Positions 23,705 to 64,000 are shown, counted from the first letter of the stretch. The stretch: DNA of 64,000 nucleotides from an uncultured Planctomycetia bacterium (GCA_964489445.1 CAZAYU010000005.1:68799-132798), one strand, 5' to 3'. Numbers and translations are program-made. The notes: generated by a model from the letters alone, not told the origin.

Positions 23705-23711
23705 AATTTTA

Positions 23712-35635: not shown

Positions 35636-35655
35636 CCTCGAATGGGGCTCAAACT
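35636..35655. repeat. partial repeat R1-C (cctcgaatggggctcaaact)
   Basis: Matches core of R1-A/B. Confidence 0.65.
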
Positions 35656-35975
35656 GTGGGAATTTGTCCAAATTTGTCTGGCATTTTGGAGAGTTAACTT
35701 GCATAACTCTTTTACTTTAAAATAGTTACAAAATGTCCAGTCTCATGGAGTAGACATCTAGCTAAAATGATTCAGTTCAATTAAGCTATTTACTCCAAGA
35801 TCTATACAATATCGACCCCACTATATTACTGTCAAGAAAGATTTAAGGCTTTTAATTAAAATTTCAAGAATAACAGCTATTTAGTGAGTCGTGCTATATA
35901 TATACAAAAGGGTACCCCTGTGTCCACATAGGTGTCGTATATTACATCCAAACTGATCGAAATTGGTACAAAATG

Positions 35976-36012
35976 AAAAACCCCACGACCGTTTAAGATC
36001 GTAGGGTTTCCA
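35976..36012 (-). terminator. Rho-independent terminator of the long minus-strand biosynthetic operon
   Basis: Minus strand ccctacgatc-ttaaac-ggtcgtgggg (10-bp stem with 2 GU) followed by TTTTTCATTTT; 170 nt after stop of last operon gene. Confidence 0.5.
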
Positions 36013-36179
36013 GGTTATTCTTATTGCAGTGAGAAAATTTGAACTTCTAACCTCAAAATTATGAAAGCGTAAAGGGACTTCAATGATCTACTATTACTTG
36101 CTAACGTCTTATCTTGGTGAAATTTACAAAATATTTATTTGTTCTCGTTTAACGCTATTTTATAAAAATAACACTACTT

Positions 36180-40350: not shown

Positions 40351-41034
40351 TTATTTAAATATATACCCGTTGATCTCACTAACTTTATCGCCCTTAAAAT
40401 GAACCGTAAAGCTTTTAGCCCGGCTTTCCCAATAAGTCCATAAGTCAGAATCGACAGAAGACGTTTTATGTGTTGGCGGATACCCGTAAGCCATTAAAAC
40501 TGCTTTTTTGCTCATGCCTACTTTTATCTTTCCATTCTCAACATCTTCTTTCTCTTTGCTTGATAACTTCTTAAAATCTTCTTCCAGGGGATTATCATTT
40601 GAAAAATATCTATCAAACAACTCGTATAAATCTATCTTACTATGCTTCGCCGCACGCGTATAAGTGTACACTTTTTTTCCGGACACAACAGTAAACTTTA
40701 TCTTATTGCCCCCAAATTTATCGACTCTAACTTCTGTTCCTGCAGAAATCATTGCCCCTCTATGAAAATTTGTTGAAAGAAAATTCTTTTCTTTTTCAAA
40801 CCACATGTTCGCCTTTAAATAAAATACCTTACCTTTAACTCTTTTTTCCATGTTTCTTAGTTTTTCTCTTCTTTCCCTTATCTTCTTTTTTCTTTTTTGC
40901 TCTGGAGTCATCAATTTATCCCTATACTCTTGCGTTCCTGCAAAATTCATGTCATTTGCATACACATTTATTACTAGAGCTGACATTGATAACACTAATA
41001 TTAAGCTAAAATTAAGAATTATTTTTCTGGCCAT
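40351..41034 (-). CDS. secreted/periplasmic protein with C-terminal SmpA_OmlA (BamE)-like domain
   Basis: Signal peptide, K/E-rich coiled region, VGMSKKAVLMAYGYPP motif. Confidence 0.35.
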   Translation of the reverse strand: MARKIILNFSLILVLSMSALVINVYANDMNFAGTQEYRDKLMTPEQKRKKKIRERREKLRNMEKRVKGKVFYLKANMWFEKEKNFLSTNFHRGAMISAGTEVRVDKFGGNKIKFTVVSGKKVYTYTRAAKHSKIDLYELFDRYFSNDNPLEEDFKKLSSKEKEDVENGKIKVGMSKKAVLMAYGYPPTHKTSSVDSDLWTYWESRAKSFTVHFKGDKVSEINGYIFK

Positions 41035-41051: not shown

Positions 41052-41993
41052 TTATATTGTTAGGTTAAAAACCGTTTTCTTATTTCTATCAAAAAACCTT
41101 ATATTTTTGATATTATCCGAAGACTCAAGGTTAACGTCGTTTCTTAACTTTATAAGATTTGAGTAAACATGTTTATTTTTAAGCATTAAAGCTGCTGAGG
41201 CACAGCAAAAGCTTGAACCTGATGCGACCCATCCCCATGCTGAATAATTGTTGAAAGAGACTATATTTTTCTCATCATCTTCTTTTCCTCCTGAAACTTG
41301 ATTGCACTCGATATTACAATACTTTGCTTTTCTTTTGCCATCGCTCAATAAAAAGAAAGCGCTTCCTTCCCCAGGAATAGATTCTACAATATTTAGCTTT
41401 TGAGTACATATGTATTCCATAGCAAGGCTTAACTCATCAACAGTTCCCACAAGGACATACTTACACCTTCCTTGATTAATCCACGCATCAGCTAATTGCA
41501 AAGCATTGCAAAATGGAAAACAGAAATCCGTCAGAGTAATTGCTGGCCCCTTAATATTTAATACCGATGCAATATATGATGCCGCAGCATTATGAACAGA
41601 ATGCGAAAATGTCGTTGGAGAAACGCTAGCTTCACCATAATCAAGGATATTATCCAAAAAATTAAATGTTGTCCTATGAGGACCAAATGATGTGGAAACA
41701 ATAACACCAACCTTTTCATTTTCGGCTATTTCTATTCCACTATCTTTAAACGCGTCCCACGCTGCTAAAACAGCCATCTTACAAAACCGATCAGATCGTC
41801 GACACTTTTTAAGTACATCTTTATCTTTCAAAACTTTATCATCTACGCTAAAAACAGGAATTGTCTTCTTTGTTATTGCTGAATATTCTGAAGATTTTGG
41901 TTCAGAATGATCTTGCTGTAAAGCTTTCACAAAGTTTTCAATCCCTCTTCCCGCGCTTGAAATTATTCCAATTCCTTGGATTTTCATAAACAA
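41052..41993 (-). CDS. ketosynthase-like protein lacking canonical active-site Cys (chain-length-factor-like)
   Basis: Thiolase-fold motifs SPTTFSHSVHNAAASYIASVLNIKGP but no TACSS-type Cys; 313 aa. Confidence 0.6.
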   Translation of the reverse strand: MFMKIQGIGIISSAGRGIENFVKALQQDHSEPKSSEYSAITKKTIPVFSVDDKVLKDKDVLKKCRRSDRFCKMAVLAAWDAFKDSGIEIAENEKVGVIVSTSFGPHRTTFNFLDNILDYGEASVSPTTFSHSVHNAAASYIASVLNIKGPAITLTDFCFPFCNALQLADAWINQGRCKYVLVGTVDELSLAMEYICTQKLNIVESIPGEGSAFFLLSDGKRKAKYCNIECNQVSGGKEDDEKNIVSFNNYSAWGWVASGSSFCCASAALMLKNKHVYSNLIKLRNDVNLESSDNIKNIRFFDRNKKTVFNLTI

Positions 41994-42024: not shown

Positions 42025-42480
42025 CTATTTATCCGAGTAGTTATCAAGTATTTTCTTCTTTTGTTCTTCAAAGTCATCCTGAGTTATAAGTCCCTCTGAC
42101 AATAGCTTGCTGAGAGTTTTTATCTTAAATTCTACGCTATCTTCTAGCTCTATATCACTCTCGTCAGCATCTTCCCTTAATCTTGAATCATCTTCTGATA
42201 AACATTTAAAAGTCAACTCAGCTGTAGACCACCTAACAAACGGGGCCCAATTGCCACATTCAGATTTCATAGAATAAAGTTGCTTGTTTTTACTTATACA
42301 ATGCTCGTTTCCGATTCTATATAGCTTAGCCAACACGGTAGCACCTTTAGAAAATGGAGTAGAAGTGCTGCCAGAGATCATATAGGTATCTTTTCCTGTT
42401 CGAACTACTCCTCCAATTGCACATCCCGAAAACATAAAAATAATTAAAAAAAAGTATATAAAATAATTTATTTTCTTCAT
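42025..42480 (-). CDS. lipoprotein (lipobox FSGCA) with Cys pair and SHOCT-like C-terminal tail; paralogue of 49978-50292
   Basis: SGCAIGGVVRTGKDTYMIS...EHCISKNKQ...FKC aligns with the other lipoprotein. Confidence 0.45.
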   Translation of the reverse strand: MKKINYFIYFFLIIFMFSGCAIGGVVRTGKDTYMISGSTSTPFSKGATVLAKLYRIGNEHCISKNKQLYSMKSECGNWAPFVRWSTAELTFKCLSEDDSRLREDADESDIELEDSVEFKIKTLSKLLSEGLITQDDFEEQKKKILDNYSDK

Positions 42481-42502: not shown

Positions 42503-43648
42503 TTATTCTTCTCTATTGATTACAAGAGCCGCATTGTTCCCACCAAAAGCTAATGACGTTGACAAGCCGTACTGCCCTTTAACTTCTGTCTTTTTCTTTA
42601 ATGGAGAAATCCCTATTTCCTCATCTTCACTCTGGAATCCAGCACTTTTCGGAATCCAACCCGCTTTCAAAGCTAAAGCCGTAAACACAGCCTCGATTGC
42701 ACCAGCTGCCCCCAATGTGTGCCCAGTATAACCTTTAGTAGAAAGTACTTTAACGTCGGTGCCGAAAAGCTCACCAATTACTCTCCCTTCTACTTTATCA
42801 TTATCTAAAGTTGCAGTTCCATGCGCATTTATAAAATAAATATCTCGCAATTCAATCCCTGCCCCCTCTATTGCTTCCTTGATAGCATTTTTTAATCCAA
42901 CTCCATCTGGATGCGGAGCCGTTAAATGATGTGCATCTGATCCTGAACCATAAGCTGAAATATGCATCTTGGACAGGCCTCTTTTTTCTAGAATTAAAAC
43001 TCCTGCCCCCTCTCCAAGGTTTAACCCTTTTCTATTTTTATCAAATGGCGCACATACTGTATCACTCATAATTCCTAATGAATTGAATCCGCATAAAGGA
43101 ATTTTATTTAATTCATCTGCGCCACCGGCGATTACAATATCACACATATCATTCTTTAGCCAAGATATTGCAATCCCAATCGCATCAGCTCCTGAAGAAC
43201 ACGCATTAACAACAACGCTCTTTGGGCCATTTAATTTATACTTCTTTGCAATAACTTCCGCCAAATTTCCATTCAAATATTTGTTAACAGAAGTAATACA
43301 AGCTTGCCCTGTCTCTTTAAATTCTTTATAAAAATCAATATTATTTAGCTGGCTAGCTACCGTTGTTCCAAAACAGACACCAACCCTTTTATTGTTATCA
43401 AAAATATCTCCGTCGTAGCCTTCGATAGCTTCTTCGACAGCAGACAACAATAAGCTTAAAGTCCTATTTCTACACTTCGGCTGATACCCTCTAACCTCAA
43501 AAACAGGCTTATTTAGTTCCGTCTCAAACAAAGTAACTTTACCGACATTAATATATCCTTTGTCGAAAGTTTGTATTGTTTCTGTAATATTCCTACCCGC
43601 AGCCGAAATACAGCCCATTGCGGATATTGTAATCTGATTATTATTCAT
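42503..43648 (-). CDS. beta-ketoacyl-ACP synthase (KS, FabF/FabB-like)
   Basis: NACSSGADAIG active Cys, NAHGTAT, GHTLGAAG His motifs. Confidence 0.85.
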   Translation of the reverse strand: MNNNQITISAMGCISAAGRNITETIQTFDKGYINVGKVTLFETELNKPVFEVRGYQPKCRNRTLSLLLSAVEEAIEGYDGDIFDNNKRVGVCFGTTVASQLNNIDFYKEFKETGQACITSVNKYLNGNLAEVIAKKYKLNGPKSVVVNACSSGADAIGIAISWLKNDMCDIVIAGGADELNKIPLCGFNSLGIMSDTVCAPFDKNRKGLNLGEGAGVLILEKRGLSKMHISAYGSGSDAHHLTAPHPDGVGLKNAIKEAIEGAGIELRDIYFINAHGTATLDNDKVEGRVIGELFGTDVKVLSTKGYTGHTLGAAGAIEAVFTALALKAGWIPKSAGFQSEDEEIGISPLKKKTEVKGQYGLSTSLAFGGNNAALVINREE

Positions 43649-43651: not shown

Positions 43652-43942
43652 TTATTCTGATTTATTTTCTATATTGGCTACAACATACTTTGCTAAGGTA
43701 TCCAATGAATAAAATATCTCTCGCCCTTTAGTCATATCCTTCACTTCTAACCCAAAGTTTCTTTGGAGTAAAACAACAATCTCAACAGCGTCCAAGGAAT
43801 CTAAGCCTAATCCATCACCAAAAAGAATCTCATCATCCTTGATATTTTCAGCCTTAACGTCCTCAAGAGATAGATGGTCTACCAGTAACTCTTTTAATTT
43901 CTTTCTTATTTCAACCAATCTTTTTTCTTCTGATTCCTGCAT
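43652..43942 (-). CDS. acyl carrier protein (ACP 2 of 3)
   Basis: DGLGLDSLDAVEIVVLLQRNFG. Confidence 0.8.
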   Translation of the reverse strand: MQESEEKRLVEIRKKLKELLVDHLSLEDVKAENIKDDEILFGDGLGLDSLDAVEIVVLLQRNFGLEVKDMTKGREIFYSLDTLAKYVVANIENKSE

Positions 43943-43961: not shown

Positions 43962-44525
43962 TTATTGATTTTGGAATTCAAACACTAACTTATTCCCATT
44001 TTTTCTATTAATTAAAGGAATGCTAAATTTTTCGCCACTCGCAAGAGGATGAATAAACATCACCCCGCTTATATCAGAATTTGGATCAACGGAAACATCA
44101 ACAATTTCCTTAGCCAAATAGTCTTTTCTAATTTTATTATTTATTTTAATAATGCGAACATGGAGAGGTGGCCAAGGACCAGCATGTATCCACTGGTTGC
44201 GCGCACACTTTCTTGCGGCTTCTTCTGCATATATATAGTTAGGCTCAACGCTAGCCTTTCTAAATCCGTAAGCCACATCACTCTTGTTATCTATCACAAT
44301 AAATACTGGCTGAATTTCCCTTCCCCGCATATCGCAACTAAATATCTCGCTTGCCTCATCATAATCAAAAAACTTTACAGCTACAGAAACACCATTTAGG
44401 TTAACAGCATCGACATAATCTTCAACATAATTGCTTGGCAACCTGCCCGCGTAGTATCCGCCACACCCGGAAATAGCAACCATTAAAAATACTAAGATAA
44501 AAAAAAGTAACGCCCTCTTAAACAT
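43962..44525 (-). CDS. lipoprotein of unknown function (lipobox ISGCG)
   Basis: Signal peptide plus Cys; 187 aa. Confidence 0.4.
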   Translation of the reverse strand: MFKRALLFFILVFLMVAISGCGGYYAGRLPSNYVEDYVDAVNLNGVSVAVKFFDYDEASEIFSCDMRGREIQPVFIVIDNKSDVAYGFRKASVEPNYIYAEEAARKCARNQWIHAGPWPPLHVRIIKINNKIRKDYLAKEIVDVSVDPNSDISGVMFIHPLASGEKFSIPLINRKNGNKLVFEFQNQ

Positions 44526-44566: not shown

Positions 44567-45457
44567 TTAGCCCCATACATCCGCAAAAAGAAAAATTTGA
44601 TACGGATAATTTTCTGCATAGTTATTTAAAACCGTTGCATATTCTTGCACATATTCCTTTAGTTGCTGCCTTTTCTCTTTTTTTCCATCATACTTCGGTC
44701 TTATAACATTGTTAAAATCAACTAGATATTCTTTATGCGATAATTTTGCCGTTAATAAAACAATTATCGGACACTCTAAAGACGCCGCAATTAAAAATGC
44801 TCCAAAAGGAAAACCAGCTTTCTCCCCTAAATAATCCACACCTAAAGCTGGAAACCCATATCGACGGTCACCCATTATGGAAACAACATCCCCACTGTTA
44901 ATCTTTTCTGTTATTTCAATTACTCCTCCAAAGTCTTGCTCCGGAGAAATAATCTTCACTCTTTCTTTTTCTGAGTCAATTTTTAAATTTTTCTTAACAG
45001 TTGTATTGTCTTCTAGCCTCATGACAAGATATATATTTTTATTTAGCTCCTTTAAACAAGATAGAGCTACTTGCCAATTGCCAATATGAGATGTGAGGAA
45101 TATACATCCTTTTTCACTTTGATTAACAATTTTCTTAACAGAATCAAACCCTTTAAGATGCATTGTAAATCCTTCATATCCCGACACTATCGCATACCGA
45201 TCAATCAGCGCCTTTCCTTGACTAACAAAAAGTAAATATACGTGCCGATATTGTTTTAAGAATCCATCTCCTCTAAATCGTCTTTTTGTGTACGCTAAAG
45301 CGCCTTTAACTGCTGCTCGGTCAAACAGCAAATAATATGTACAAACGATATACAACAAGCCATACGCACCTCGTAAGCCAAACAGCCTTGCAGAAACCAT
45401 AAAAATCTGAAATCCCAGCTCGTTTCCTCTTTTTTTTACTTCAATCTTCTTAGACAC
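44567..45457 (-). CDS. LpxL/HtrB-family lipid A-type acyltransferase (lysophospholipid acyltransferase superfamily)
   Basis: SHIGNWQ resembles the LpxL HxGNWE catalytic motif; N-terminal TM anchor; 296 aa. Confidence 0.65.
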   Translation of the reverse strand: MSKKIEVKKRGNELGFQIFMVSARLFGLRGAYGLLYIVCTYYLLFDRAAVKGALAYTKRRFRGDGFLKQYRHVYLLFVSQGKALIDRYAIVSGYEGFTMHLKGFDSVKKIVNQSEKGCIFLTSHIGNWQVALSCLKELNKNIYLVMRLEDNTTVKKNLKIDSEKERVKIISPEQDFGGVIEITEKINSGDVVSIMGDRRYGFPALGVDYLGEKAGFPFGAFLIAASLECPIIVLLTAKLSHKEYLVDFNNVIRPKYDGKKEKRQQLKEYVQEYATVLNNYAENYPYQIFLFADVWG

Positions 45458-46646
45458 TCACAGCACCTTTCTCTGTTTTTCGCTGCAAAAATTTTGTAAT
45501 ACCAAAAACCATAAAGCCAGTAAATACTGCTAATATAGGTGCAACAACCAAAGATCCTAAAAACCATTCCCAAATTCGGTCAAATGCCTGATAAAAAATA
45601 ACATCGACAGAAACTTCTGTCAGCCATGTTCCATAAAGCATGAAATGCCCAACCTCTATGCATACGACAGGAACAAATGGCGGCGCACACAAATTCTGGA
45701 TGCTCACTGCCATAACTTTATTCAAATGCAATCGAGTAGTGACATAAACAATCACAATAGTATGCACTGCAATCAAAGGTAGCACAGCCAGCAAAATCCC
45801 AACTGCCGCGGAGGCAGCCAAGCCTTCAGGAGTTGCATTTTCTTTAAGCAAAAACTTTAAGACTTTAAGAGGATGTTTAAGCAATTCTTTATGCATAATA
45901 CTTTTTTCTTCTCGCTGAATTAGCTTCTTATGAGGAACAGGCAGCAGCCTCCTTAAAACAAGCTGTGTATGCATCATTGAAATTCTTAAATTATCTAGAA
46001 ATCCTTTAAAATGAGAAATTCGCTCCCCTTCTTTAGCATAATGCACGCCAACATCAACTGTCTTAATCCTTAAACCAGCCCAAGCCGCTTTTGCAATAGC
46101 TTCCGTCTCAAAGTCATAATGTACGCCCTTCAAATTAAGCCTCAAAATGTAATCAACAGGGTATGCACGAAAACCACTTTGGCAATCATCAATAGATAGT
46201 CCAGTTTCTATCTTAAACCAGAAATTTGAGAAATTTCTTCCAAATTTACTCTTGCCCGGAATATTCTCTGCAAAAAAATTTCTGGAACCAATAACAATGA
46301 CATCGCCCTGATCTCCAATCTCAGCAATAATCTTAGCGATATCTTTCGGATAATGCTGCCCGTCTGCATCTATTGTAACCGCGTACCTACCACCTTCTTT
46401 TTTTACATATTTCAACCCAGTTAGAATTGCCGCACCTTTACCTTCATTGTTTTCATGCTTAATAACAACAACTCTTCCATCCGCAACAGCTAATCCCACG
46501 TTAAGATCAGTACTTCCATCATCAACAACAACAATGTTCTCAACTTGTTCTTTACACCCCAAAATAACGTCTTTTAAAGTCTTTCCATTGTTGTAAACGG
46601 GGATGATACACCAAATCTTATTTCCTTCAAAATTACTTGGAGTCAT
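45450..46646 (-). CDS. family-2 glycosyltransferase fused to C-terminal 4-TM membrane domain
   Basis: CIIPVYNNGKTLKDVI...VVVDDGSTD GT-A fold with DxD; hydrophobic C-terminal third. Confidence 0.7.
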   Translation of the reverse strand: MTPSNFEGNKIWCIIPVYNNGKTLKDVILGCKEQVENIVVVDDGSTDLNVGLAVADGRVVVIKHENNEGKGAAILTGLKYVKKEGGRYAVTIDADGQHYPKDIAKIIAEIGDQGDVIVIGSRNFFAENIPGKSKFGRNFSNFWFKIETGLSIDDCQSGFRAYPVDYILRLNLKGVHYDFETEAIAKAAWAGLRIKTVDVGVHYAKEGERISHFKGFLDNLRISMMHTQLVLRRLLPVPHKKLIQREEKSIMHKELLKHPLKVLKFLLKENATPEGLAASAAVGILLAVLPLIAVHTIVIVYVTTRLHLNKVMAVSIQNLCAPPFVPVVCIEVGHFMLYGTWLTEVSVDVIFYQAFDRIWEWFLGSLVVAPILAVFTGFMVFGITKFLQRKTEKGAVSV

Positions 46647-48006
46647 AACTCATATGCCTTTTACGTTTTTCTTTTCCTTTAAGAAGCATGTCCCATAAAC
46701 AACCTGAATATCCCATCTTGTGAAGAAACTGCAAACTACTATCTAGCGCGTCCGGAGGAAAAACACAATTCCTCATTCCTTTAAAACCTTCGGTCAATGT
46801 TTTTTCCAGCCATTCTTTTTCAATCGCAGGATCAATGTAATAAACTGGATCTAAAAGATTCCCACCCATCTCAATAACTCCATCATCCTCTGCGATCTTT
46901 AATAATGAGGTTCCCGGTAAAATTCGTACTCCCATAAATATAAATGAAACCGAATTCTTTAGCCTTTGAATATTCTCGATGCCTTCAATAGCTGTTTCTT
47001 TTGTTTCTCCGGGGCATCCAAACATATAATAATGCGCAACCGCAACTTCATGCTTTACGAATAAATCATTTGATTCAATAGCATCTCTAAATAAAAATGA
47101 TTTACCTAGCTTCTTTAAAGTTGTATCTGTCGGTGCATCTGTTCCCAACTCAGCTGCGCACAGCCCTGTACTTTTCATCAATTCTACAATTCCATCCGTT
47201 AGTCCTCTTGGAGTAAAAAACGCTGTCCATGGAACATTTATGTTTCGTTCTTTCATCTCTTTCACAACTTTCAAGTATTCCCCTTGAGAATCATTAAAAA
47301 CAGAATCTGTAAAGAAAATAAGTTTTGCTCCGTACTGTTCATGTAGCTCTTGGACATCATCCACAACAGATTTTGGAACTCTAGCTCTTATTTTTGATCC
47401 TTCCAGCAAAGGATAAGAACAATAAACACATTTACAAGAACACCCTCTTTTTGTTTGAATAGAAGCAACATTGCCGCTTTGCAAATAATACTTCATTAAT
47501 TCTGAATCATATAAAGCATTCGGAATTACACCACCACTTATCAGAGCTCTGCTTCGTATACACTTTTCTTTTGGAAAAATCCTTCTTTCAATATCCTTTA
47601 CAAATTTAACTATCAGTTCTTCCCCTTCACCTACAATTCCATAATCTGCTCCTGTTTTTTCAAGAATAACATTTGGCATGATGGAAAACCCTGAGCCCCC
47701 TAACACAACGACAGCTTTTGAATTCTTCTTTATCATCGCAACAATATCTGTAACAGCATCAATATATCGCTGCTCATTCATTAAATTCACATTATCGATA
47801 TTGCGAATCGAAACCCCTACAATATCCGGATCAATTCTTTTTTGCTCTTTGTTGAGAACATCTAGAGACTTCTCACTTTTTAAGTAATCTCTTTGTTCAA
47901 CATTAATTCCCGCATTCTTTAAAGCTGCTGCAACCATGCTCATCCCCAAAGGATAAATCGTGTAAGGTGTCTTCGCCACATTAGAAGATATTAATAAAAC
48001 TTTCAT
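46633..48006 (-). CDS. cobalamin-binding radical SAM enzyme (class B) #1
   Basis: N-terminal B12-binding-like Rossmann (MKVLLISSNV...), CSCKCVYC = Cx3Cx2C; start set at ATG (ORF-track start is TTG). Confidence 0.75.
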   Translation of the reverse strand: MKVLLISSNVAKTPYTIYPLGMSMVAAALKNAGINVEQRDYLKSEKSLDVLNKEQKRIDPDIVGVSIRNIDNVNLMNEQRYIDAVTDIVAMIKKNSKAVVVLGGSGFSIMPNVILEKTGADYGIVGEGEELIVKFVKDIERRIFPKEKCIRSRALISGGVIPNALYDSELMKYYLQSGNVASIQTKRGCSCKCVYCSYPLLEGSKIRARVPKSVVDDVQELHEQYGAKLIFFTDSVFNDSQGEYLKVVKEMKERNINVPWTAFFTPRGLTDGIVELMKSTGLCAAELGTDAPTDTTLKKLGKSFLFRDAIESNDLFVKHEVAVAHYYMFGCPGETKETAIEGIENIQRLKNSVSFIFMGVRILPGTSLLKIAEDDGVIEMGGNLLDPVYYIDPAIEKEWLEKTLTEGFKGMRNCVFPPDALDSSLQFLHKMGYSGCLWDMLLKGKEKRKRHMSYDSK

Positions 48007-48013
48007 GTTTACA

Positions 48014-49255
48014 TTACCGCCTATCAACTATTAATTTCTGTTTTTTAAATGTCCCATCAGCTTTTTCTTTCTTGATGATATCTATAAATAGCTTTGCCAT
48101 CTTTATCTCCTGACAACAATCACCGTAAAAAGTATCCCATGCATAGTGATACATCTTTTGCAAAGAATCCACCGTCATCAATTTCGGCTGAAAAACAACT
48201 TCCCCACATGTATATTTGATCCAATCGTTATGTAAAATTCTTCCCTGATTCTCCATCTCTCTCCTAAATGGCGTCTGAGAAAAAGGTGTTAAAATAGTAA
48301 ACTCGGCCAAATCCAAATCTATTTCCATGAGAAAATCTACCATTCGCTTAATGTAATCTTCATCGTGATGTTCCAGGCCAAGGAGAATTGTCCCTTCAAC
48401 TCCGATTCCCCTCTCTTTTAGCCTTTTAACTCTATTACGCATATAATCCGAAGTGTCCACAATAGCTTGATACACATACCAGCACCCAGCCTTGGCTGCT
48501 AGATCAAGTATCTCATCGTCGTCTTTAATCGGATGTGAGATCCATTTCTTTTTCAATGGTGCAATTGCCCTAAACAGTTTTTTCTCCCATTCATCATCCT
48601 GCGCTAATGAATTATCAACAATAAATAACCGGTTATTCTTTATACTCTCCAGCTCTTTGACAACTTTCTCGATAGGCCGAGGCCTAAAGCACTTCCCTCC
48701 TAAAAATCGTACGCAACAAGGAAAACAATTGAATTTACACCCTCTGGACATGTGCATCAAGTCAACCATCTGCACACCCTTAAAATTGTATAACTCATGG
48801 TTCAAGATATCTCGTCTTGCAGTATCTACCAATGAGATATCTGGCAATTGTTTTTGATAATTGTAAACTTGCTTTAACTTGCCGTTTCTAAAATCATTAA
48901 TCAAATTTCCGATCACACCTTCCGCTTCCCCTAAAAACACAGCATCTGCATGCGGGATTGTTTCCTCAGGATGCAGCATTGTAGCAATGCCTCCGAAAAT
49001 CACTTTTTTCCCTTTTGCCCGATACAAATCTGCTATTTCCCATGCTCTTGGCATTTGGCATGTCAGCATAACAGACATAGCTATTAAATCAGCATCTTCA
49101 TTAAAATTAATATTTTCTACATTTTCATCGTAGAATGAAATTTCAATATCTGACCCCAAGGCCGCAGCAAAACAGACAGGACCATGAGGAGGCAGATTGA
49201 AACTTGTTTGCTCCTTAAGTTTTGGCCACTTAGGATATATAATCAGTAACTTCAT
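48014..49255 (-). CDS. cobalamin-binding radical SAM enzyme (class B) #2
   Basis: MKLLIIYPKW B12-like start, SRGCKFNCFPC = Cx3Cx2C; AAGGA SD inside preceding gene. Confidence 0.75.
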   Translation of the reverse strand: MKLLIIYPKWPKLKEQTSFNLPPHGPVCFAAALGSDIEISFYDENVENINFNEDADLIAMSVMLTCQMPRAWEIADLYRAKGKKVIFGGIATMLHPEETIPHADAVFLGEAEGVIGNLINDFRNGKLKQVYNYQKQLPDISLVDTARRDILNHELYNFKGVQMVDLMHMSRGCKFNCFPCCVRFLGGKCFRPRPIEKVVKELESIKNNRLFIVDNSLAQDDEWEKKLFRAIAPLKKKWISHPIKDDDEILDLAAKAGCWYVYQAIVDTSDYMRNRVKRLKERGIGVEGTILLGLEHHDEDYIKRMVDFLMEIDLDLAEFTILTPFSQTPFRREMENQGRILHNDWIKYTCGEVVFQPKLMTVDSLQKMYHYAWDTFYGDCCQEIKMAKLFIDIIKKEKADGTFKKQKLIVDRR

Positions 49256-49919
49256 TCTTGTCCTTTTGCGAAATCTTTTTTATAACTTCAGATAGTACCC
49301 CTGTGCCCTTTACTGCATGCTGTACTTCTTCTAGAGTTATCCATCCATTCTTTAAAGAATATTTCTCTTCTTTTAAAAGAAAACAAATTGCTTCTTCTTC
49401 ACTGGCATTAACTATTAATAGGCTCTTAGCTTCTTTTGATTCAATCATTATCCGTCCTTGCTCAAGAACCTGGCTTATTTGATCTTCCTCAAACGTAAGG
49501 TACAAAACAGGTCCTTGGCATCCAAAATTGATAGCTGCCTCTGCTATTGGCGTTGAAGGCAATGTATAAACAAATAAGCTCCCTCGAGACAACTTCCGCC
49601 CACACTCAACATAATCTTTAAAATATTTTATATTTGATTGCAAACATCCCTCTTCATCTGTGCTCAAAATACCTAAATCCTGCATTGTTCCCTTTGAATA
49701 ATCAACACCTGCATCAAATAAAGCTAAAGAAATTGCGAAGCACGTATTTCTTGAAACTTTATCAAATCTTCCAAAATTCTTAATAGGCTCTAACAAAATA
49801 GACGCATCTCTGAGAGTTGAGTGCATTTTCTTCCTATCTGAGTATTCAGTTATATTTTTTCTAAATACACTTCCAAACTTATTTTCTGTGATCCAGCCTA
49901 TTCCTTGAACAATAATCAT
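49230..49919 (-). CDS. truncated ketosynthase-like (N-terminal thiolase-fold half, no catalytic residues)
   Basis: LPSTPIAEAAINFGCQGPVLYL resembles KS motif seen in 41052-41993; start set at ATG (MIIVQGIGWI). Confidence 0.45.
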   Translation of the reverse strand: MIIVQGIGWITENKFGSVFRKNITEYSDRKKMHSTLRDASILLEPIKNFGRFDKVSRNTCFAISLALFDAGVDYSKGTMQDLGILSTDEEGCLQSNIKYFKDYVECGRKLSRGSLFVYTLPSTPIAEAAINFGCQGPVLYLTFEEDQISQVLEQGRIMIESKEAKSLLIVNASEEEAICFLLKEEKYSLKNGWITLEEVQHAVKGTGVLSEVIKKISQKDKNEVTDYIS

Positions 49920-49977
49920 ACTATTTCCCTGAACTCCTATTATCAATACTAAATTGATTCCCTACCAGCCAAGAGTA

Positions 49978-50292
49978 TTATTTTGAAACACTATCACTCA
50001 CGCATCGGAATTGCAGAGAAGCACTACCAGGCCTAGCAGGTAAAGAATTTAACATCTCCAAGGCTACTGTCTCCACTTTCTTATTTTGCTTAGAACAAAA
50101 CTCGTTTGCCTCTCGGTACACAACAGCCTTTGCGCCAACAGGCTGACCACAACCAATCTGCCAACTTCTCTTGGATACCACATATGTGTCCTTGTCCATA
50201 GGGATAACTCCTGTGCTTGCACAACCGCTGAGCAGAATAACGAACATTAGACAAAAATAGCCAAGAAACACATTTCTTATTTTTCTAAACAT
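49978..50292 (-). CDS. small lipoprotein (lipobox LLSGCA), paralogue of 42025-42480
   Basis: SGCASTGVIPMDKDTYVVS...EFCSKQNKK...FRC. Confidence 0.45.
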   Translation of the reverse strand: MFRKIRNVFLGYFCLMFVILLSGCASTGVIPMDKDTYVVSKRSWQIGCGQPVGAKAVVYREANEFCSKQNKKVETVALEMLNSLPARPGSASLQFRCVSDSVSK

Positions 50293-50321: not shown

Positions 50322-51458
50322 TTATTCACATGCGACTATTATTAACGCAGAATTAATTCCACCAAATCCAGAGTTTGTTGACAAAACAATATTGTTTTTA
50401 AGCCTAACTTCTTCTTTTTGAATCCACCCTACAGCTTCCTCATCAATATTTTCCGCCCCTACCGTAGGTGGCAAAACATTATTTTGAATAGTTTCTAGCG
50501 CCACCAGAGCATCCATAAGACCAGCTGATCCCATAGTGTGTCCAATTCCACCTTTGATAGAGTAGGTTGGAAGAACTTTACCGCCAAATATACTTTTAAA
50601 TGCTTTCATCTCCATCGAATCGTTATATACCGTTCCTGTCCCATGTGCACAAATACTATTGATTTCTTCGGCTGTTATGCCTCCTGATTCTAGCGCTCTG
50701 TCTATAGCCAAGAATAGACCTTCCCCGTCTATGGACGGACCGGTCACATGGTTTGCATCGCAAGAAATTCCCCAACCTAAAATGCCTCCCTTAACGGGTC
50801 TCTTCTCTTTATCCGCTCTTTCCTTCGACATAAGAAGAATACAAGCTGTCGCTTCCCCAACATTAAGACCCTCTCTATTTTTATCAAATGGTCGAGCGTT
50901 ATATCTATCTAAAGCCATCAGCGATGAAAATCCGGAAATAATAAACTCGCTTACACAATCACAAGAAACAACCAAAACACATTCACTCTTTTTAGACCTA
51001 ATTAACGATGCAGCTCGAGCAATAGCAACGCTAGAGGATGCACATGCAGCAGAAATCAGCATTCCTTTCCCTCTTACCTTAAAAAGATCATGTGTTTTTG
51101 CCAATAAAAGACCTAATCGACTCTCCTCTGAGCTTTTTTTTCCTGTTAACATCTCATCTTCAAGAAAATCAATCTCGCCATTTAAAGACGCGAGCATCAA
51201 GTCAGCATCTTCCGGTATTGAATTGTTAATATTTTCCTTAAGCCTTTCCATCATTTGAAAAACAAGTGATTTCTCATTCCTAGAAACAAGGCCCTTAATT
51301 GTAGCTGCTTTGTTTGATTTGAAATGCCTGGTGTCAAATCTTTTAATGTCATCTATTGAAGTTTGATTACTAAGCAAGCCTTGCCAGCAAACATCTATTC
51401 CTTCTCCATAAGGGGTAACCGCATTATAGTCAACTATGACCGGACTTGCCTTCAGCAT
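50322..51458 (-). CDS. beta-ketoacyl-ACP synthase (KS)
   Basis: AACASSSVAIA active Cys, AHGTGT, GHTMGSAG. Confidence 0.8.
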   Translation of the reverse strand: MLKASPVIVDYNAVTPYGEGIDVCWQGLLSNQTSIDDIKRFDTRHFKSNKAATIKGLVSRNEKSLVFQMMERLKENINNSIPEDADLMLASLNGEIDFLEDEMLTGKKSSEESRLGLLLAKTHDLFKVRGKGMLISAACASSSVAIARAASLIRSKKSECVLVVSCDCVSEFIISGFSSLMALDRYNARPFDKNREGLNVGEATACILLMSKERADKEKRPVKGGILGWGISCDANHVTGPSIDGEGLFLAIDRALESGGITAEEINSICAHGTGTVYNDSMEMKAFKSIFGGKVLPTYSIKGGIGHTMGSAGLMDALVALETIQNNVLPPTVGAENIDEEAVGWIQKEEVRLKNNIVLSTNSGFGGINSALIIVACE

Positions 51459-51928
51459 GAATATTCACCCTTTACCCATTTCTCGCGACACTTTTCAAGC
51501 ATGGCAGGCATTGCAATATATGGTTCCTGAGATTTAGCATCAACAAACATCTGCACAGTATATCCTGTTGCTGCAACTTGCCCATCCTCTTTAATAATTA
51601 CATATTCAATATTGATCCTTGCCCCTTCACTCCAGATCATATTTGCTTCAACATGACAAACCTCATCAAGAATCAATGGCGCATGATAATCAATATGCAT
51701 TTGCACAATTGGCGCACGTAAGCCTGCTTCATAGAATTCCCTGTAAGATAAGCCCCATTTCCGCCCTATAGCGGAAAATCCCTCTTCGAAATATTCTGCA
51801 TACCTGCCATGCCACACAACTCCCATCACGTCGACATCGCTGAAACTTACTCTCTTCTCAACTCGCACAATCAAAGGAGCAGGGCCTTCTGGAATTATCT
51901 TAAAATATTTGCCTAGTTTTCTTCTCAT
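51452..51928 (-). CDS. hot-dog fold acyl-CoA/ACP thioesterase (4HBT/YbgC-like)
   Basis: VSFSDVDVMGVVWHGRYAEYFEEG. Confidence 0.7.
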   Translation of the reverse strand: MRRKLGKYFKIIPEGPAPLIVRVEKRVSFSDVDVMGVVWHGRYAEYFEEGFSAIGRKWGLSYREFYEAGLRAPIVQMHIDYHAPLILDEVCHVEANMIWSEGARINIEYVIIKEDGQVAATGYTVQMFVDAKSQEPYIAMPAMLEKCREKWVKGEYSC

Positions 51929-51940
51929 TACGTAACCCCG

Positions 51941-52309
51941 TTAAAATATCAGCTTTAGTTCAGCGACCTTTTCCTCTTTTTTGACAATGAGAACTTTAAC
52001 AGATAAATTCTCTAAACTCTCGTTCTCAAAACACTTAAATATCAATTCTTCATCACAGGTTGTAGGCTGAAAGAATTTTGCAAGTTTTATTTCCTTCAGC
52101 TCAAGATTATCCTTACCTTTCCACTTCTTTATAACCTCTACTGCCGATAAAATCTTGCAGACTCCAGGCAAAACAGGATTGTTTTCGAAATGCCCCTGAA
52201 ACCCGAGGAACTCTTTATCAAAAATAAAGTTTGCCGTTGCCATGCGCTTATCGATAATATCTATATTGCACATACATCTATTTATGTCCCCTATTAGATC
52301 GCAGCTCAT
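51941..52309 (-). CDS. FabZ-like 3-hydroxyacyl-ACP dehydratase (hot-dog)
   Basis: LGFQGHFENNPVLPGV matches the FabZ HFPxxPxxPGV motif. Confidence 0.65.
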   Translation of the reverse strand: MSCDLIGDINRCMCNIDIIDKRMATANFIFDKEFLGFQGHFENNPVLPGVCKILSAVEVIKKWKGKDNLELKEIKLAKFFQPTTCDEELIFKCFENESLENLSVKVLIVKKEEKVAELKLIF

Positions 52310-52971
52310 AACACCTCTTTGACGTTGATTATCAGCTTGTAGCCATATAAGTAGTTTGCAAAAATTATCCCTTTAGGATACACTTTTCCATCTTTTTCCA
52401 TATATTCATAATATCTGGCCGACCAAGCCTTCTTTTTTCCTTCATAATGTACCTTCTCAATCAAATAATTCTCTTTGCCTGCAAAAACATACTCCGTAAT
52501 CCCAGCGTCTTGTTTCTGGCTAAATATAATTTCTTTTTTCTTCTTTTTAATTTCAAAAAACTTTAATGGTGCCTGGTCAAAATATATACGGTAAATATCC
52601 TTAACCAAAGCTTTCGAAATATCTCCCTTCTTAGAAATTTCATCGATAACATTATTGACCGTGACTTCCCCGTTCTTCGCTGCAATTTCAATGAGCTTTA
52701 CTCCAACAGAATTCATGCCAGCTAATTCGAATGCTTTTTCATTTTCATCAACAGAAAGATATCCTAACGAAAGAAATTTCCTTGCTCTAAACTGAAACAC
52801 AACGGTATTAATAATCTTGAAGCTCTCTGGCGTCAACGCAATATGCTTCCTTAAAACATCTTCAGGATTTCTATTAGTGATTAATATATATTCCGTCTTT
52901 TTAAATGGCACAAAACTGCATCCACCAATAAAACATATAGATAACAAAAGAATACAAACCTGTTTTCTCAC
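52306..52971 (-). CDS. lipoprotein (lipobox FIGGCS), possibly DUF3261-like; GTG start overlapping MMPL stop (GTGA)
   Basis: GGAGGA SD 8 nt before GTG at 52971; MRKQVCILLLSICFIGGCSF signal peptide. Confidence 0.5.
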   Translation of the reverse strand: MRKQVCILLLSICFIGGCSFVPFKKTEYILITNRNPEDVLRKHIALTPESFKIINTVVFQFRARKFLSLGYLSVDENEKAFELAGMNSVGVKLIEIAAKNGEVTVNNVIDEISKKGDISKALVKDIYRIYFDQAPLKFFEIKKKKKEIIFSQKQDAGITEYVFAGKENYLIEKVHYEGKKKAWSARYYEYMEKDGKVYPKGIIFANYLYGYKLIINVKEVL

Positions 52972-55352
52972 TGAGATCCTCCAGGAGAAATCCACAGCCG
53001 ATAACAAGCTGGGACTACAAAAGCTGCAGTCAAATAACCTGAAAATATTCCTATAGCCATAGTAACTCCCACATAAAACAAAACTGGATGTGTCGCTAAA
53101 AGCAAAACGCTTCCCCCGGCAATAGTTGTTGCTGCAGATAATGTGACAGCTAAAAAAGTTCCTGCTTCTAATTTAAACTTACAGTCGTAGACCATAAAAA
53201 CCCCATAATCGATGCAAAGCCCAACAACGACTAGAACAGCTATCATCGATGGCGCATTCAAAGAATACCCTAACAATGAAAAACCGCCAATAATCATAAA
53301 GATACTCGTTACAACAGGAAGTAAAGCCAACAAGGTCAACCGAATACTCTTTAGCAACAAAATTGTTAAGATTACAATTAATAATCCAGCTATCCAAGAA
53401 AGTTTTTTAACTTCTTGACCTGCTGATTCCGAAATAGATTTAGCCATGCTATTCCTTGAGATAATAAATGTATCTGCCATCTTACTGCTTATTTTTCGAG
53501 CCTTATCGACTAGAACTTTTTTATCCGGAAAATAGGTTATCGCATAATACCCGCTCTTTGTTTTTTGAAAAAAACGCTTCTTGGCCTGATCAAGCAACTT
53601 TGGATCTGCTAGCTTGGTGTCTTCCTCTTGGCTTATATACAGGCTATCAAAAAATGGCTTAAAGGCATCTTCAGAATATCCATAATCATTTCCTTGCTCC
53701 CGAAGAAGAATCTTTAATTCTTCCTCATGCTTATTCTTCCAGAATAAATCCCACTGCAATAGATTCTCTACCCTTGTCTCTTTGGATGGATAAACACTCG
53801 CGATATTTGAGAATTCTTTGTTCTTAAAGCTTTTGCTCATTTCCATGTTAAGAACTTCATTTACCTTAAGAACCTCCTCTCTCTTCCCTGCTTGTGCAAC
53901 TAACATAGCACATTCATTGTCAGCTCCCCACGTCTTGCGAAATTGCTCTTCCGCGTCAAAAATATTCTTTGAGCTTCCATCATAAACTCTTATATCATTA
54001 CTAAATGTTAAATTTTGAGAGAAAAAAACAAATACGCCTACAACAATAATCCACAAAAATATAATAATCCGGTCATCTAGAATATGGTACTTGTTGCAAA
54101 AGCTCATTTTTGCAAAAGGAGCTCTTTCCTTCTTTTCATAAAATAATCTCGGCAAAATAAACAAATAGAAAAAGATGCTAATAATAATACTCAAATTCGT
54201 CAATAACGCAAATTGCTGAAAACCATAAATACTAGAGAAGAAAAATGATGTAAAAACCCCCATTGTTGTAAATACCCCAACCAAAATAGGCTTCGCAACC
54301 TTGTTCACCTTTTCCATTCCACCTGCTTGCATAGCCAGATAAATATGGATACCATAGTCAACGGTTATCCCTGCGATAACCGCAGCCAAGCCAACAACAA
54401 AAGGTGAAAGCGCACCCATCTTCATTGAAGCTATATTCATAGAGATAACAATCGCGACTACGGGAATAATAAACACTAAAAGTGCACGAACACTTCTAAA
54501 CACAATAATAAGCAAAATCAAAAGGATAAAAGTAACAGCAAAAACTGTTTTGGTAATATCTTTCTTCAAAATGTCTTCATTACTTATTGTATGAAGATGT
54601 CCGCCGATGATATCCACATCAATATAATCCGGCAATAGTTTGATCTGTTCCCTTATATAATTAATCAACTTTCTTGAACCAACACTATCTGTTATAGGAA
54701 CCGATGTCGATAATATTAACATCACATGTTTTTCGTTCATACTCACAAAATGTTCGTGCTTAAATTGTGCCTGATATCCTATCGACTCTGCCAAGTCCTT
54801 CATTTTTATTAAATACTTTATTTTGATGCCAAGAGGATCATTCTGAATAAAGTATTTCATAAAAATGCTATTCATCGAAAGCATACTCTTGTAACCTTGC
54901 TTCAATCTTTCTTTGACATTCTCAGGGTTAATCTCTTTCTTGATGGAAAACAAGTCTTCTTCTGATACAACCTGCGGAACATAATCTAAAAATTCTTTAA
55001 CATCTTCTAAGACTTCATTCTCGGTTATTCCCTCCTCAATCTTCATAACAAAAGGTAGCTTTAAACCATTTTTTAGCTGATCAGCAGCTTTAATAAGATC
55101 GACCATTGTCTTACCCTCTCCTTTAAGGTGCAACGACAGGACAACTTTATCTGAAAAGTTTGATTCTCTTAAGAATTTCAGTGATTTTGAGAATTCTGCG
55201 TTTTTCGGAAGCATGATTTCAACATCATTGTTAAAAGAGGCAGAAAATAATCGAAAGACCGAAATCAAGAATACGATTACAACCAAAGAAATTGTTAATT
55301 TTCTTTTTTTATTTAGCAAGGAATATATTTTTTCGAATAAATGATTAATCAC
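52968..55352 (-). CDS. MMPL/RND-superfamily exporter (predicted lipid exporter, COG4258-like)
   Basis: 794 aa, two 6-TM bundles each followed by large periplasmic domain. Confidence 0.75.
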   Translation of the reverse strand: MINHLFEKIYSLLNKKRKLTISLVVIVFLISVFRLFSASFNNDVEIMLPKNAEFSKSLKFLRESNFSDKVVLSLHLKGEGKTMVDLIKAADQLKNGLKLPFVMKIEEGITENEVLEDVKEFLDYVPQVVSEEDLFSIKKEINPENVKERLKQGYKSMLSMNSIFMKYFIQNDPLGIKIKYLIKMKDLAESIGYQAQFKHEHFVSMNEKHVMLILSTSVPITDSVGSRKLINYIREQIKLLPDYIDVDIIGGHLHTISNEDILKKDITKTVFAVTFILLILLIIVFRSVRALLVFIIPVVAIVISMNIASMKMGALSPFVVGLAAVIAGITVDYGIHIYLAMQAGGMEKVNKVAKPILVGVFTTMGVFTSFFFSSIYGFQQFALLTNLSIIISIFFYLFILPRLFYEKKERAPFAKMSFCNKYHILDDRIIIFLWIIVVGVFVFFSQNLTFSNDIRVYDGSSKNIFDAEEQFRKTWGADNECAMLVAQAGKREEVLKVNEVLNMEMSKSFKNKEFSNIASVYPSKETRVENLLQWDLFWKNKHEEELKILLREQGNDYGYSEDAFKPFFDSLYISQEEDTKLADPKLLDQAKKRFFQKTKSGYYAITYFPDKKVLVDKARKISSKMADTFIISRNSMAKSISESAGQEVKKLSWIAGLLIVILTILLLKSIRLTLLALLPVVTSIFMIIGGFSLLGYSLNAPSMIAVLVVVGLCIDYGVFMVYDCKFKLEAGTFLAVTLSAATTIAGGSVLLLATHPVLFYVGVTMAIGIFSGYLTAAFVVPACYRLWISPGGSQ

Positions 55353-56004
55353 TTGCTTTAACTTTCCATACTTGTGGATCCAACTTTATATTAATCAATG
55401 TTTCCAGAAAGTGGAACTTTGTTGAATCGCCATTTGTCTCTAAGATATCAATCGTATCAATATATTTTTCATTTTTTTGAAAAAGGATAACAATGTTTTT
55501 TATCATTTTGAATGCCATAGAATTCTTGAAAGGTATGAATTTTAATTTCATAGGCGAAGACTGTATTACTTCAATATCGTACTCATCAATAAGAGATAGA
55601 TATGAACCAGAAACCCATCTCTTCATTTGGTTTGCAATAATATTAAACGATGGGTTGCTTGTTAAGTTAATTTTCTGAATTTGGTTTGTATCTTCATCCC
55701 ATTGCATAACAACATTATCCTTTAAAATAATTCTTTGCCTCAAAGGTGAACTGATATGCCAAGCAAAAGAAGATGGGTTACGCAAAAATAAATAACCTTT
55801 AATTGTTAGCTTCTGCCCAAACAAGGATAAATTCTTTTCCTCGATAAACTGTGTCGAGAGCGTTGTAATGCTTGACATTTTTTCCTCTATTATCCTCAGA
55901 TCATTTATCAAGTTAGAATTGGCTTCTTTGCAAATTCCGCTTAAAACAAATATATGCATAAATAAAATCATTAAAATTAGAACTCGAATCTTTACACGTC
56001 TCAT
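55345..56004 (-). CDS. LolA-like periplasmic lipid/lipoprotein carrier
   Basis: Signal peptide, 219 aa, immediately upstream of MMPL exporter as in APE clusters; fold call by context. Confidence 0.45.
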   Translation of the reverse strand: MRRVKIRVLILMILFMHIFVLSGICKEANSNLINDLRIIEEKMSSITTLSTQFIEEKNLSLFGQKLTIKGYLFLRNPSSFAWHISSPLRQRIILKDNVVMQWDEDTNQIQKINLTSNPSFNIIANQMKRWVSGSYLSLIDEYDIEVIQSSPMKLKFIPFKNSMAFKMIKNIVILFQKNEKYIDTIDILETNGDSTKFHFLETLINIKLDPQVWKVKASD

Positions 56005-62572: not shown

Positions 62573-62582
62573 ACTACCAACC

Positions 62583-63999: not shown

Positions 64000-64000
64000 A

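Follow-up and report, generated by a model that had tools for sequence, protein, structure and literature searches.

Two distinct radical SAM families with B12-type domains paired in an aryl-polyene-like gene cluster of an Omnitrophota bacterium

Introduction

Two adjacent genes for radical S-adenosylmethionine (SAM) enzymes with B12-binding-type domains, placed among genes for ketosynthases (KSs), raise the question of what these enzymes modify and with which cofactor. The genes are found in a 64,000-nucleotide (nt) stretch of DNA, here called the window (GCA_964489445.1 CAZAYU010000005.1:68799-132798), which is labeled as originating from an uncultured Planctomycetia bacterium. An original prediction, made from the sequence alone, described the region 46633-49255 as a tandem pair of cobalamin-binding radical SAM enzymes, situated between a KS gene and a "KS-like remnant". 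We refer to the upstream gene as rSAM-B (48014-49255, minus strand, 413 amino acids (aa)) and to the downstream gene as rSAM-A (46633-48006, minus strand, 457 aa). The former encodes a member of an unnamed family that is highly conserved and whose predicted fold is AprD4-like, while the latter encodes a B12-binding radical SAM protein that matches the family TIGR04072.

The two proteins represent two distinct radical SAM families with B12-type domains, and the pairing of their genes across genomes is far beyond chance. The original observation is thereby confirmed and its interpretation supported in part; the roles that it suggested, i.e., C-methylation, cyclization, or cross-linking, are at present hypotheses. 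As to function, our preferred reading, which we hold tentatively and rate as slightly short of probable, is that both enzymes tailor a chain carried on an acyl carrier protein (ACP), where rSAM-A would catalyze a cobalamin-dependent C-methylation and rSAM-B would perform a second radical step. The cluster in which the genes reside displays the TIGR04072 or "ladderane-type" arrangement that has been on record since the work of Rattray et al. (2009) and is hence not new, i.e., the pair is a further instance of an already catalogued, functionally dark kind.

Two distinct radical SAM families

Both predicted open reading frames (ORFs) were confirmed at the given coordinates of the minus strand, but the start of rSAM-A had been placed about 21 nt too far upstream. 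The mechanical ORF (46633-48027, 464 aa) opens with a TTG at position 48027, while the start in about 4,000 homologues and in public gene calls is the ATG at 48006 (Met8 of the 464-aa ORF). This ATG is preceded by a Shine-Dalgarno-like AGGCGG sequence, and a gap of 7 nt separates it from the stop codon of rSAM-B.

The B12-binding-type segment and the CX3CX2C core that had been predicted for both proteins were recovered by Pfam searches, in invariant motifs and in full-length fold matches. The Pfam B12-binding model (PF02310, cutoff 32.1 bits) is matched with 66.1 bits by rSAM-A and with 36.3 bits by rSAM-B, while the Radical_SAM model (cutoff 29.5 bits) yields 51.9 bits for rSAM-A and 27.0 bits (E 5.9e-6), i.e., slightly less than the cutoff, for rSAM-B. 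The cysteines of the sequence CSCKCVYC in rSAM-A (C189/C193/C196) are invariant in an alignment of 28 homologues, as are those of CKFNCFPC in rSAM-B (C173/C177/C180) among 32 homologues. The predicted structures of both proteins match, over their full length, solved B12-domain radical SAM enzymes (TsrM, MgmA, CysS, and OxsB).

The identity between rSAM-A and rSAM-B is only about 20%, and each family is separately conserved across phyla, which rules out a recent tandem duplication. The description as a tandem pair is thus accurate in the sense that the genes are adjacent, but the two are not duplicates. Nor does either protein belong to a well-characterized family of the kind that the original prediction had named as a possible refutation. 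Membership in the BchE, HpnP/R, HpnJ, GenK/Fom3, PhpK, AprD4, and Tes families is ruled out by scores below cutoff or by the lack of any match; BchE, HpnR, and HpnJ fall far below cutoff, and GenK, Fom3, and Tes give no match. Both proteins score far below the curated cutoffs of the BchE, HpnJ, HpnR, PhpK, AprD4, QCMT, and BzaD models, e.g., 72 and 47 bits (rSAM-A and rSAM-B, respectively) for BchE with a cutoff of 481, 49 and 35 bits for HpnR with a cutoff of 650, 186 and 22 bits for BzaD with a cutoff of 450, and 54 and 39.8 bits for AprD4 with a cutoff of 500.

Cofactor binding

By its profile match, rSAM-A is a full-length member of TIGR04072 (rSAM_ladder_B12, "lipid biosynthesis B12-binding/radical SAM protein"), with 609 bits at a cutoff of 360 and coverage of profile positions 1-443 of 443. 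The next-best curated families are BzaD, which is matched over the full length, and TsrM (TIGR04428, 124.5 bits, cutoff 500), both far under their cutoffs. The best solved structure is that of TsrM, with 140 bits in a profile search and, using Foldseek, an E-value of 2e-24 and a TM of 0.80. The elements G64-x-S66-x-R68, G103G104, and GEGE of rSAM-A are all invariant among the 28 homologues. In TsrM, the motif Gly65-x-Thr67-x-Arg69 places the Arg under the cobalt, and the invariant R68 of rSAM-A aligns with this Arg69, i.e., the two motifs are counterparts. From these motifs, rSAM-A most likely binds cobalamin in a TsrM-like manner with Arg68 under the cobalt.

A second residue that is characteristic of TsrM, Glu273 of a GGE motif, ligates the unique iron and thereby keeps SAM out. 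The corresponding position is occupied by Val236 in rSAM-A and by Ser216 in rSAM-B. Because of this Val, ordinary SAM binding and radical generation are still possible for rSAM-A, which is probably able to cleave SAM to a 5'-deoxyadenosyl radical. With the TsrM-type Arg present, the Glu absent and a TIGR04428 score so far below the cutoff, the protein does not classify with the non-radical TsrM type.

The situation is less clear-cut for rSAM-B, which matches no curated family; a score of only 50.5 bits for TIGR04072 places it outside also that family. Its sequence is strikingly conserved, with about 70% identity between Omnitrophota, Desulfobacterota, Nitrospirota, Spirochaetota, and other phyla. 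The best fold match of the predicted structure is AprD4 (PDB 6fd2), a radical SAM 1,2-diol dehydratase that binds no cobalamin. This match suggests an alternative in which rSAM-B is a cobalamin-independent AprD4-like dehydratase or redox enzyme and in which rSAM-B, possibly together with rSAM-A, acts on a polar head group (a sugar or polyol) installed by a glycosyltransferase and an acyltransferase. Consistent with this alternative, the downstream motif of rSAM-B reads A-x-S-x-M, which puts a Met where TsrM has Arg69. On the other hand, rSAM-B passes the Pfam B12-binding cutoff, its GG (G88, G89) and GE (G109, E110) motifs are invariant, its N-terminal domain aligns, at the sequence level, with MgmA/QCMT, which is cobalamin-dependent, and not with AprD4, and the score with the AprD4 model is less than a tenth of the cutoff. 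On the strength of the GG/GE motifs, the Pfam score and the MgmA alignment, cobalamin binding by rSAM-B is rated as probable. The prediction that both proteins bind cobalamin is thus well supported at the level of motifs for rSAM-A only. Genes for cobalamin biosynthesis or uptake and cobalamin riboswitches were not found within the 64-kb window.

Conservation of the pair

The organization of the locus was compared for the best 80 loci, chosen by similarity to rSAM-B. These loci are found in Omnitrophota, Desulfobacterales, Geobacterales/Desulfuromonadales, Syntrophus, Thermodesulfovibrionia, and Spirochaetota, and also in Verrucomicrobiota, Kiritimatiellia, Lentisphaerota (including the cultured Victivallis vadensis), Elusimicrobia, Nitrospinota, and Acidobacteria. 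In 71 of the 74 informative loci rSAM-A is encoded downstream of rSAM-B, directly in 69 of them and with a larger gap in two. The three exceptions are a Spirochaetota locus (L009), where rSAM-A is close by but encoded on the other strand, an Acidobacteria locus (L067), where rSAM-B stands alone with no recognizable cluster genes within 10 kb, and a Desulfobacteraceae locus (L082), which lacks rSAM-A as well as the genes for the glycosyltransferase and the acyltransferase described below. Directly upstream of rSAM-B, a gene here called X229, which encodes a truncated KS-like protein, is found in 67 of 75 loci. Taken together, a block composed of a KS, a catalytically dead KS, rSAM-B, rSAM-A, a GT2-DUF2062 glycosyltransferase, an acyltransferase, an ACP, and a further KS recurs in about ten anaerobic phyla.

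The best-conserved proteins of the cluster are rSAM-B (median identity 66%) and ACP1 (65%), a ranking that is biased by the selection of the loci according to rSAM-B similarity. Across the loci, orthologues of rSAM-B are 61-87% identical. The radical SAM module is expanded in some lineages: five loci from Desulfuromonadales and Syntrophus harbor three tandem B12-type radical SAM genes at the same position, in the order B-A-A (L059, L068, and L071) or B-A-B (L070 and L074), similar to clusters with multiple methylases.

Of 185,579 species genomes scanned, at least 580 encode relatives of rSAM-B, and the family comprises thousands of clusters at 90% identity. The exact rSAM-A and rSAM-B proteins are already present in public data from metagenome-assembled genomes (MAGs), and the 90%-identity cluster mates of both bear no annotation beyond "cobalamin-dependent protein" or "radical SAM protein". 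Among named organisms, Candidatus Aceula meridiana (Omnitrophota) comes closest, with 91% identity, and the nearest loci are from Omnitrophota MAGs; judged from these sequence relationships, the host is an Omnitrophota bacterium and not an anammox bacterium.

Coupling to ketosynthase and glycosyltransferase genes

The placement among KS genes agrees with the original prediction, with KS2 and X229 found upstream and KS3 downstream of the pair; these and all other genes of the cluster are on the minus strand. KS2 (50322-51458) has Pfam ketoacyl-synt N and C domains and, from an active-site alignment, an intact Cys and His/His; together with synteny, these features make it the likely partner of X229. 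The latter (49230-49946; the public call is 229 aa with a start at 49919) gave no match in Pfam, but hhalign assigned it probabilities of 98.2% and 97.9% for homology to another truncated KS of the cluster and to KS1, respectively. It is a homologue of the N-terminal half of a KS, with a Glu at the position of the active-site Cys and without the C-terminal His/His half. Because of these features, X229 is most likely a catalytically dead, chain-length-factor-type partner of KS2. The term "KS-like remnant" is therefore a misnomer, and a decaying pseudogene is ruled out by the conservation of X229 across loci.

Downstream of the pair are genes for a GT2 glycosyltransferase-DUF2062 fusion (45450-46646, ApeJ-like; Pfam, synteny), an LpxL/LPLAT-type acyltransferase (44567-45457, ApeD-like; Pfam Lip_A_acyltrans, synteny), ACP1 (43652-43942; PP-binding domain) and KS3 (42503-43648; Pfam, active-site alignment). 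The genes are tightly packed, with an overlap of 26 nt between X229 and rSAM-B, 14 nt between the stop of rSAM-A and the start of GT2, and 8 nt between the stop of GT2 and the start of the acyltransferase. Promoter-like and terminator-like sites around the rSAM-B/rSAM-A pair were not above the shuffled background. The overlaps, the short gap within the pair, and the lack of an excess of such sites fit with co-transcription of X229, rSAM-B, rSAM-A, GT2, and the acyltransferase gene.

The overlaps of rSAM-A with GT2 and of GT2 with the acyltransferase gene are also what would be expected if the radical SAM enzymes act on a head group, as in the AprD4-like alternative outlined above. X229 and KS2 are just as tightly coupled on the other side of the pair, and, considering also the cofactor motifs of rSAM-B, we regard this alternative as unlikely.

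Relation to ladderane-type clusters

In Kuenenia stuttgartiensis, Rattray et al. (2009) identified extended type II fatty acid synthase clusters that are syntenic with clusters of Desulfotalea, Geobacter, and Pelobacter. Their genes include those for radical SAM enzymes, for non-canonical FabFs, for a phenylacetyl-CoA ligase and a glycosyltransferase, and also a phytoene-desaturase-like gene. Surveys based on antiSMASH listed "ladderane" clusters in Omnitrophota and many non-anammox phyla, with no function assigned. Judged from its gene content, the cluster in the window is a counterpart of the Kuste3335-3352 "ladderane-type" cluster of Kuenenia, as the gene set of that type is entirely co-located here, i.e., an A-type and a SPASM-type radical SAM enzyme, a PaaK-like ligase, a glycosyltransferase, a CrtI-like flavoprotein, FabG, ACPs, and canonical as well as non-canonical KSs.

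For a comparison of the proteins, the 5' fragments (about 385 nt) of four codon-optimized Kuenenia radical SAM genes, available as supplementary data of Javidpour et al. (2016), were translated, such that the homology to kuste3342 and kuste3343 rests on the N-terminal 128 residues. The best match in the window is rSAM-A for kuste3342 (40%, E 6e-29), the SPASM enzyme for kuste3343 (39%, E 3e-29), and rSAM-B for both kuste3608 (34%, E 1e-14) and kuste2803 (36%, E 9e-9). An anammox contig carrying Cluster I (L085) aligns to residues 2-334 of rSAM-B (E 3e-34) and far more weakly to rSAM-A. In this contig (at 7995-9450) the genes for FabF, for the CrtI-like protein, and for the B12-type radical SAM enzyme are each split into two to three ORFs by apparent assembly frameshifts; as a consequence of frameshifts of this type, a search with the kuste3608 fragment gave only pieces of 97-180 aa. 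Compared end to end, rSAM-B and a full-length kuste3608-like representative share 28% identity (E 3e-44), which is closer than the match of either protein to any curated family, and this representative scores 155 bits with the rSAM-B profile and 36 bits with the rSAM-A profile. Overall, the identity between rSAM-B and the Cluster I radical SAM enzyme is 26-37%.

These data bring in a second alternative, namely that one or both enzymes, especially rSAM-B, catalyze ring closure or another form of C-C bond formation. Here, hydrogen abstraction from an ACP-bound unsaturated chain would lead to a carbocycle or cross-link, in a reaction related, outside anammox bacteria, to the step proposed for the formation of the ladderane cyclobutanes. 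The idea draws on the full-length collinearity with the kuste3608-like protein, on rSAM-B being the best match in the window to the Cluster I radical SAM enzyme, and on the arrangement of KS2 and X229 beside rSAM-B, which mirrors that of amxFabF2 and amxFabFmut beside kuste3608. In addition, a CrtI-like flavoprotein is found in both clusters, and the B12-type radical SAM enzymes BchE and HpnJ catalyze cyclization or ring contraction. However, ladderanes are known from anammox bacteria only and none are found in Desulfotalea psychrophila despite its syntenic cluster, and the role of kuste3608 is itself no more than proposed. Furthermore, a search with the anammox N-terminal domain among 1.84 billion representatives identified many unnamed, uncharacterized families that are 45-55% identical to it, compared to 37% for rSAM-B, such that no relative of kuste3608 nearest to it can be seen in rSAM-B. 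By sequence, rSAM-B and kuste3608 share a broad clade but are not orthologues. Ring closure therefore appears doubtful to us, and the anammox ladderane pathway as such was not recovered in this Omnitrophota host, where no orthologue-level match to the Cluster I radical SAM enzyme was found.

A third alternative, which follows a hypothesis of Rattray et al. (2009), is an oxygen-independent desaturation, where the radical SAM enzymes and the CrtI-like flavoprotein would act jointly to place double bonds in a saturated acyl-ACP, giving polyunsaturated fatty acids or hydrocarbons. The syntenic cluster of D. psychrophila has tentatively been tied to C31:8 and C31:9 hydrocarbons, a link that is circumstantial and was judged weak by the reviewers of that paper, and the cluster in the window harbors two flavin desaturase-like genes (61076-62644 and 37616-38809). 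For Kuste3336 and kuste3607 no CrtI activity was seen, and new fatty acids did not appear in Escherichia coli; furthermore, a system of KS, ketoreductase, and dehydratase without an enoyl reductase already yields polyenes, such that no desaturase is needed. Moreover, C31:9 hydrocarbons of other bacteria are products of the Pfa/Ole pathways. Among the alternatives discussed here, desaturation is the one to which we assign the least weight, and we consider it highly improbable.

A proposed function

In the mechanism that we favor, i.e., tailoring of the ACP-bound chain, a heterodimer of KS2 and X229 would build the chain on an ACP, and both radical SAM enzymes would modify it before attachment to a lipid anchor and export to the outer membrane. 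With bound cobalamin, rSAM-A would transfer a methyl group to a carbon, probably sp2, of an aryl or polyene intermediate, and rSAM-B would carry out a second step on the same intermediate, initiated by hydrogen abstraction. The ACP-bound chain is suggested as the substrate because of the tight coupling of the pair to KS2/X229 and to ACP1. The choice of C-methylation as the most likely reaction of rSAM-A is based on the TsrM-type Arg under the cobalt, on the kinship to BzaD, a predicted Csp2 methylase, and TsrM, for which Csp2 methylation has been demonstrated, and on the predominance of methylases in this enzyme class.

Several observations weigh against this mechanism. With TsrM and BzaD, rSAM-A shares about 20% identity, and a likeness of fold and motifs does not fix the reaction. 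The best fold match of rSAM-B is, as discussed above, a cobalamin-free dehydratase. The two genes are coupled to the glycosyltransferase gene as tightly as to the KS genes, which makes a head-group substrate possible. The aryl-polyene nature of the chain is itself deduced from homology, and several of the Ape-type matches fall below cutoff (ApeI-like 20.4/28.5, ApeP-like 14/27, DUF3261 22.0/22.3, and FlxY (NF053551) 454/520 bits). Upon expression of kuste genes in E. coli no new lipid was observed, and kuste3342 and kuste3343 were undetected as proteins. In the literature, we found no functional study of TIGR04072 or of an aryl polyene associated with radical SAM or cobalamin enzymes, and in reviews up to 2026 the ladderane radical SAM enzymes are still referred to as uncharacterized.

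A broader and more speculative extension, which we consider rather improbable as it stands, is that the KS2/X229/rSAM-B/rSAM-A module produces an undescribed outer-membrane lipid, a polyene or acyl lipid modified by radical SAM chemistry and perhaps bearing a C-methyl branch or a carbocycle, that is widespread in about ten anaerobic phyla, and that kuste3608 and kuste2803 are specialized offshoots of the same clade. If so, Victivallis vadensis, Desulfosarcina sp. BuS5, and Geobacter would be tractable models for ladderane-forming chemistry. Irrespective of this extension, rSAM-B is unusually conserved, is coupled to a KS/chain-length-factor pair and an ACP, and belongs to a very large family. 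Radical SAM chemistry that acts on fatty-acyl or polyketide chains has hardly been documented; in a 2026 review, Jaw5 and the hypothetical ladderane enzymes are the only cases listed. Working out the functions of rSAM-A and rSAM-B would establish a new class of lipids in anaerobes and could also bear on the long-standing ladderane question, given that the anammox candidates are of these same two types of enzyme. The Omnitrophota copy offers no leverage beyond public annotation; the interest is higher at the family level.

Other features of the cluster and the window

The whole cluster extends from position 36180 to the end of the window at 64000, where it runs off, i.e., it covers more than 28 kb, with three ACPs (ACP1, ACP2, and ACP3). 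Its backbone resembles an aryl-polyene-like type II polyketide/fatty acid synthase system, combined with three radical SAM enzymes and two flavoproteins. In the direction of transcription, the genes encode PagL, FabG, the CrtI-like flavoprotein, KS1, ACP3 (59568-59837, 89 aa; PP-binding domain 39.8 bits), a PlsC-type acyltransferase, a FlxY/PaaK-like adenylating ligase (57506-58807), which resembles ApeH and the "phenylacetyl-CoA ligase" kuste3344, and the third radical SAM enzyme, of SPASM type (56001-57506, 501 aa; Pfam Radical_SAM and SPASM), the counterpart of kuste3343. These genes are followed by an export and processing block (51452-56004; Pfam) composed of a LolA-like protein, an MMPL/RND transporter, a DUF3261 lipoprotein, an ApeI-like dehydratase, and a 4HBT thioesterase, and then by KS2, a lipoprotein, X229, rSAM-B, and rSAM-A. 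After rSAM-A are found GT2-DUF2062, the LPLAT acyltransferase, a lipoprotein, ACP1, KS3, a further lipoprotein, and a second truncated KS (41052-41993), which has a ketoacyl-synt N domain only, without the His/His half, and is probably the chain-length-factor-type partner of KS3. The last part encodes a BamE-like protein, ACP2, a condensation-like protein, an FAD oxidoreductase, and a second AMP-ligase. The only SAM-dependent methyltransferase found is encoded 8 kb outside the cluster, at 27867-28514; inside it, none was identified.

At its C-terminus the SPASM enzyme is extended by about 160 aa, in which a weak match to ApeP-like dehydratases (14 bits) is a hint only. Interspersed among the biosynthetic genes are four small proteins with lipobox-like signals (LSGC, ISGC, FSGC, and IGGC) and one BamE-like secreted protein, encoded at 49978-50292, 43962-44525, 42025-42480, 52306-53007, and 40351-41034. 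Using tblastn over the other loci, the BamE-like protein was detected in 11 and the 187-aa lipoprotein in a single one, while neither the 104-aa nor the SHOCT lipoprotein gave a match, such that the DUF3261 protein is the sole widely conserved one of these small secreted proteins and lipoproteins.

The roughly 1.1 kb past the end of the cluster (35061-36179) contain no gene-like ORF of at least 60 aa, and neither an Rfam match nor a tRNA was found anywhere in the 64-kb window. Nearly all genes of the window are on the minus strand, and the GC skew is negative in all 2-kb bins except that at 30-32 kb, which holds the sole large plus-strand gene, encoding a MatE transporter (30474-31829). Far from the cluster, at 22361-24239 on the minus strand, a stand-alone DUF2062 protein (23712-24239) is encoded beside an AsmA/DUF748-like protein; its domain is the same as that found in the glycosyltransferase fusion of the cluster.

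Comparison with known systems

Among characterized enzymes with a solved structure, the closest to rSAM-A is TsrM (PDB 6wte), which methylates C2 of tryptophan. The G-x-S/T-x-R, GG, and GE elements are retained in rSAM-A, but the protein is about 110 residues shorter, and the replacement of the iron-ligating Glu by Val means that the purely non-radical mechanism of TsrM is not implied. The second-best curated family of rSAM-A is the benzimidazole C-methylase BzaD. The resemblance of rSAM-B to AprD4 is one of fold, with 16-19% sequence identity, and the two differ in the cysteine motif, which is CX3CX3C in AprD4 and CX3CX2C in rSAM-B, as well as in the B12-domain features that rSAM-B retains.

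At the level of the cluster, the parts shared with aryl polyene (APE) and flexirubin clusters are the FlxY-like ligase, the KS with a truncated KS, ACPs, a ketoreductase, the ApeI-like dehydratase, 4HBT, GT2-DUF2062, LPLAT, LolA, MMPL, and DUF3261. The three radical SAM enzymes, the two flavoproteins, the condensation-like protein, and the second ligase are additional here; to our knowledge, canonical APE clusters contain no radical SAM genes.

The TIGR04072 members, which include kuste3342 of Kuenenia and DP1853 of Desulfotalea, share with rSAM-A a context composed of a glycosyltransferase, a CrtI-like flavoprotein, a PaaK-like ligase, FabG, a non-canonical KS, and a SPASM enzyme. However, the named members of the family are from anammox bacteria or Desulfobacterota, while the host in the present case is assigned to Omnitrophota. 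Furthermore, the neighbor of kuste3342 is the SPASM enzyme kuste3343, while that of rSAM-A is rSAM-B, and the modules that are spread over three loci in Kuenenia, i.e., KS, dead KS, and the B-type, A-type, and SPASM radical SAM enzymes, are combined into one cluster here. Of the proteins in the window, rSAM-B is closest to the candidate ladderane enzymes of anammox Cluster I and kuste2802-2805 (kuste3608 and kuste2803, respectively), and both kuste3608 and rSAM-B are encoded beside a KS and a catalytically dead KS, but the anammox clusters do not harbor the GT2, LPLAT, and export genes that are present in the Omnitrophota cluster.

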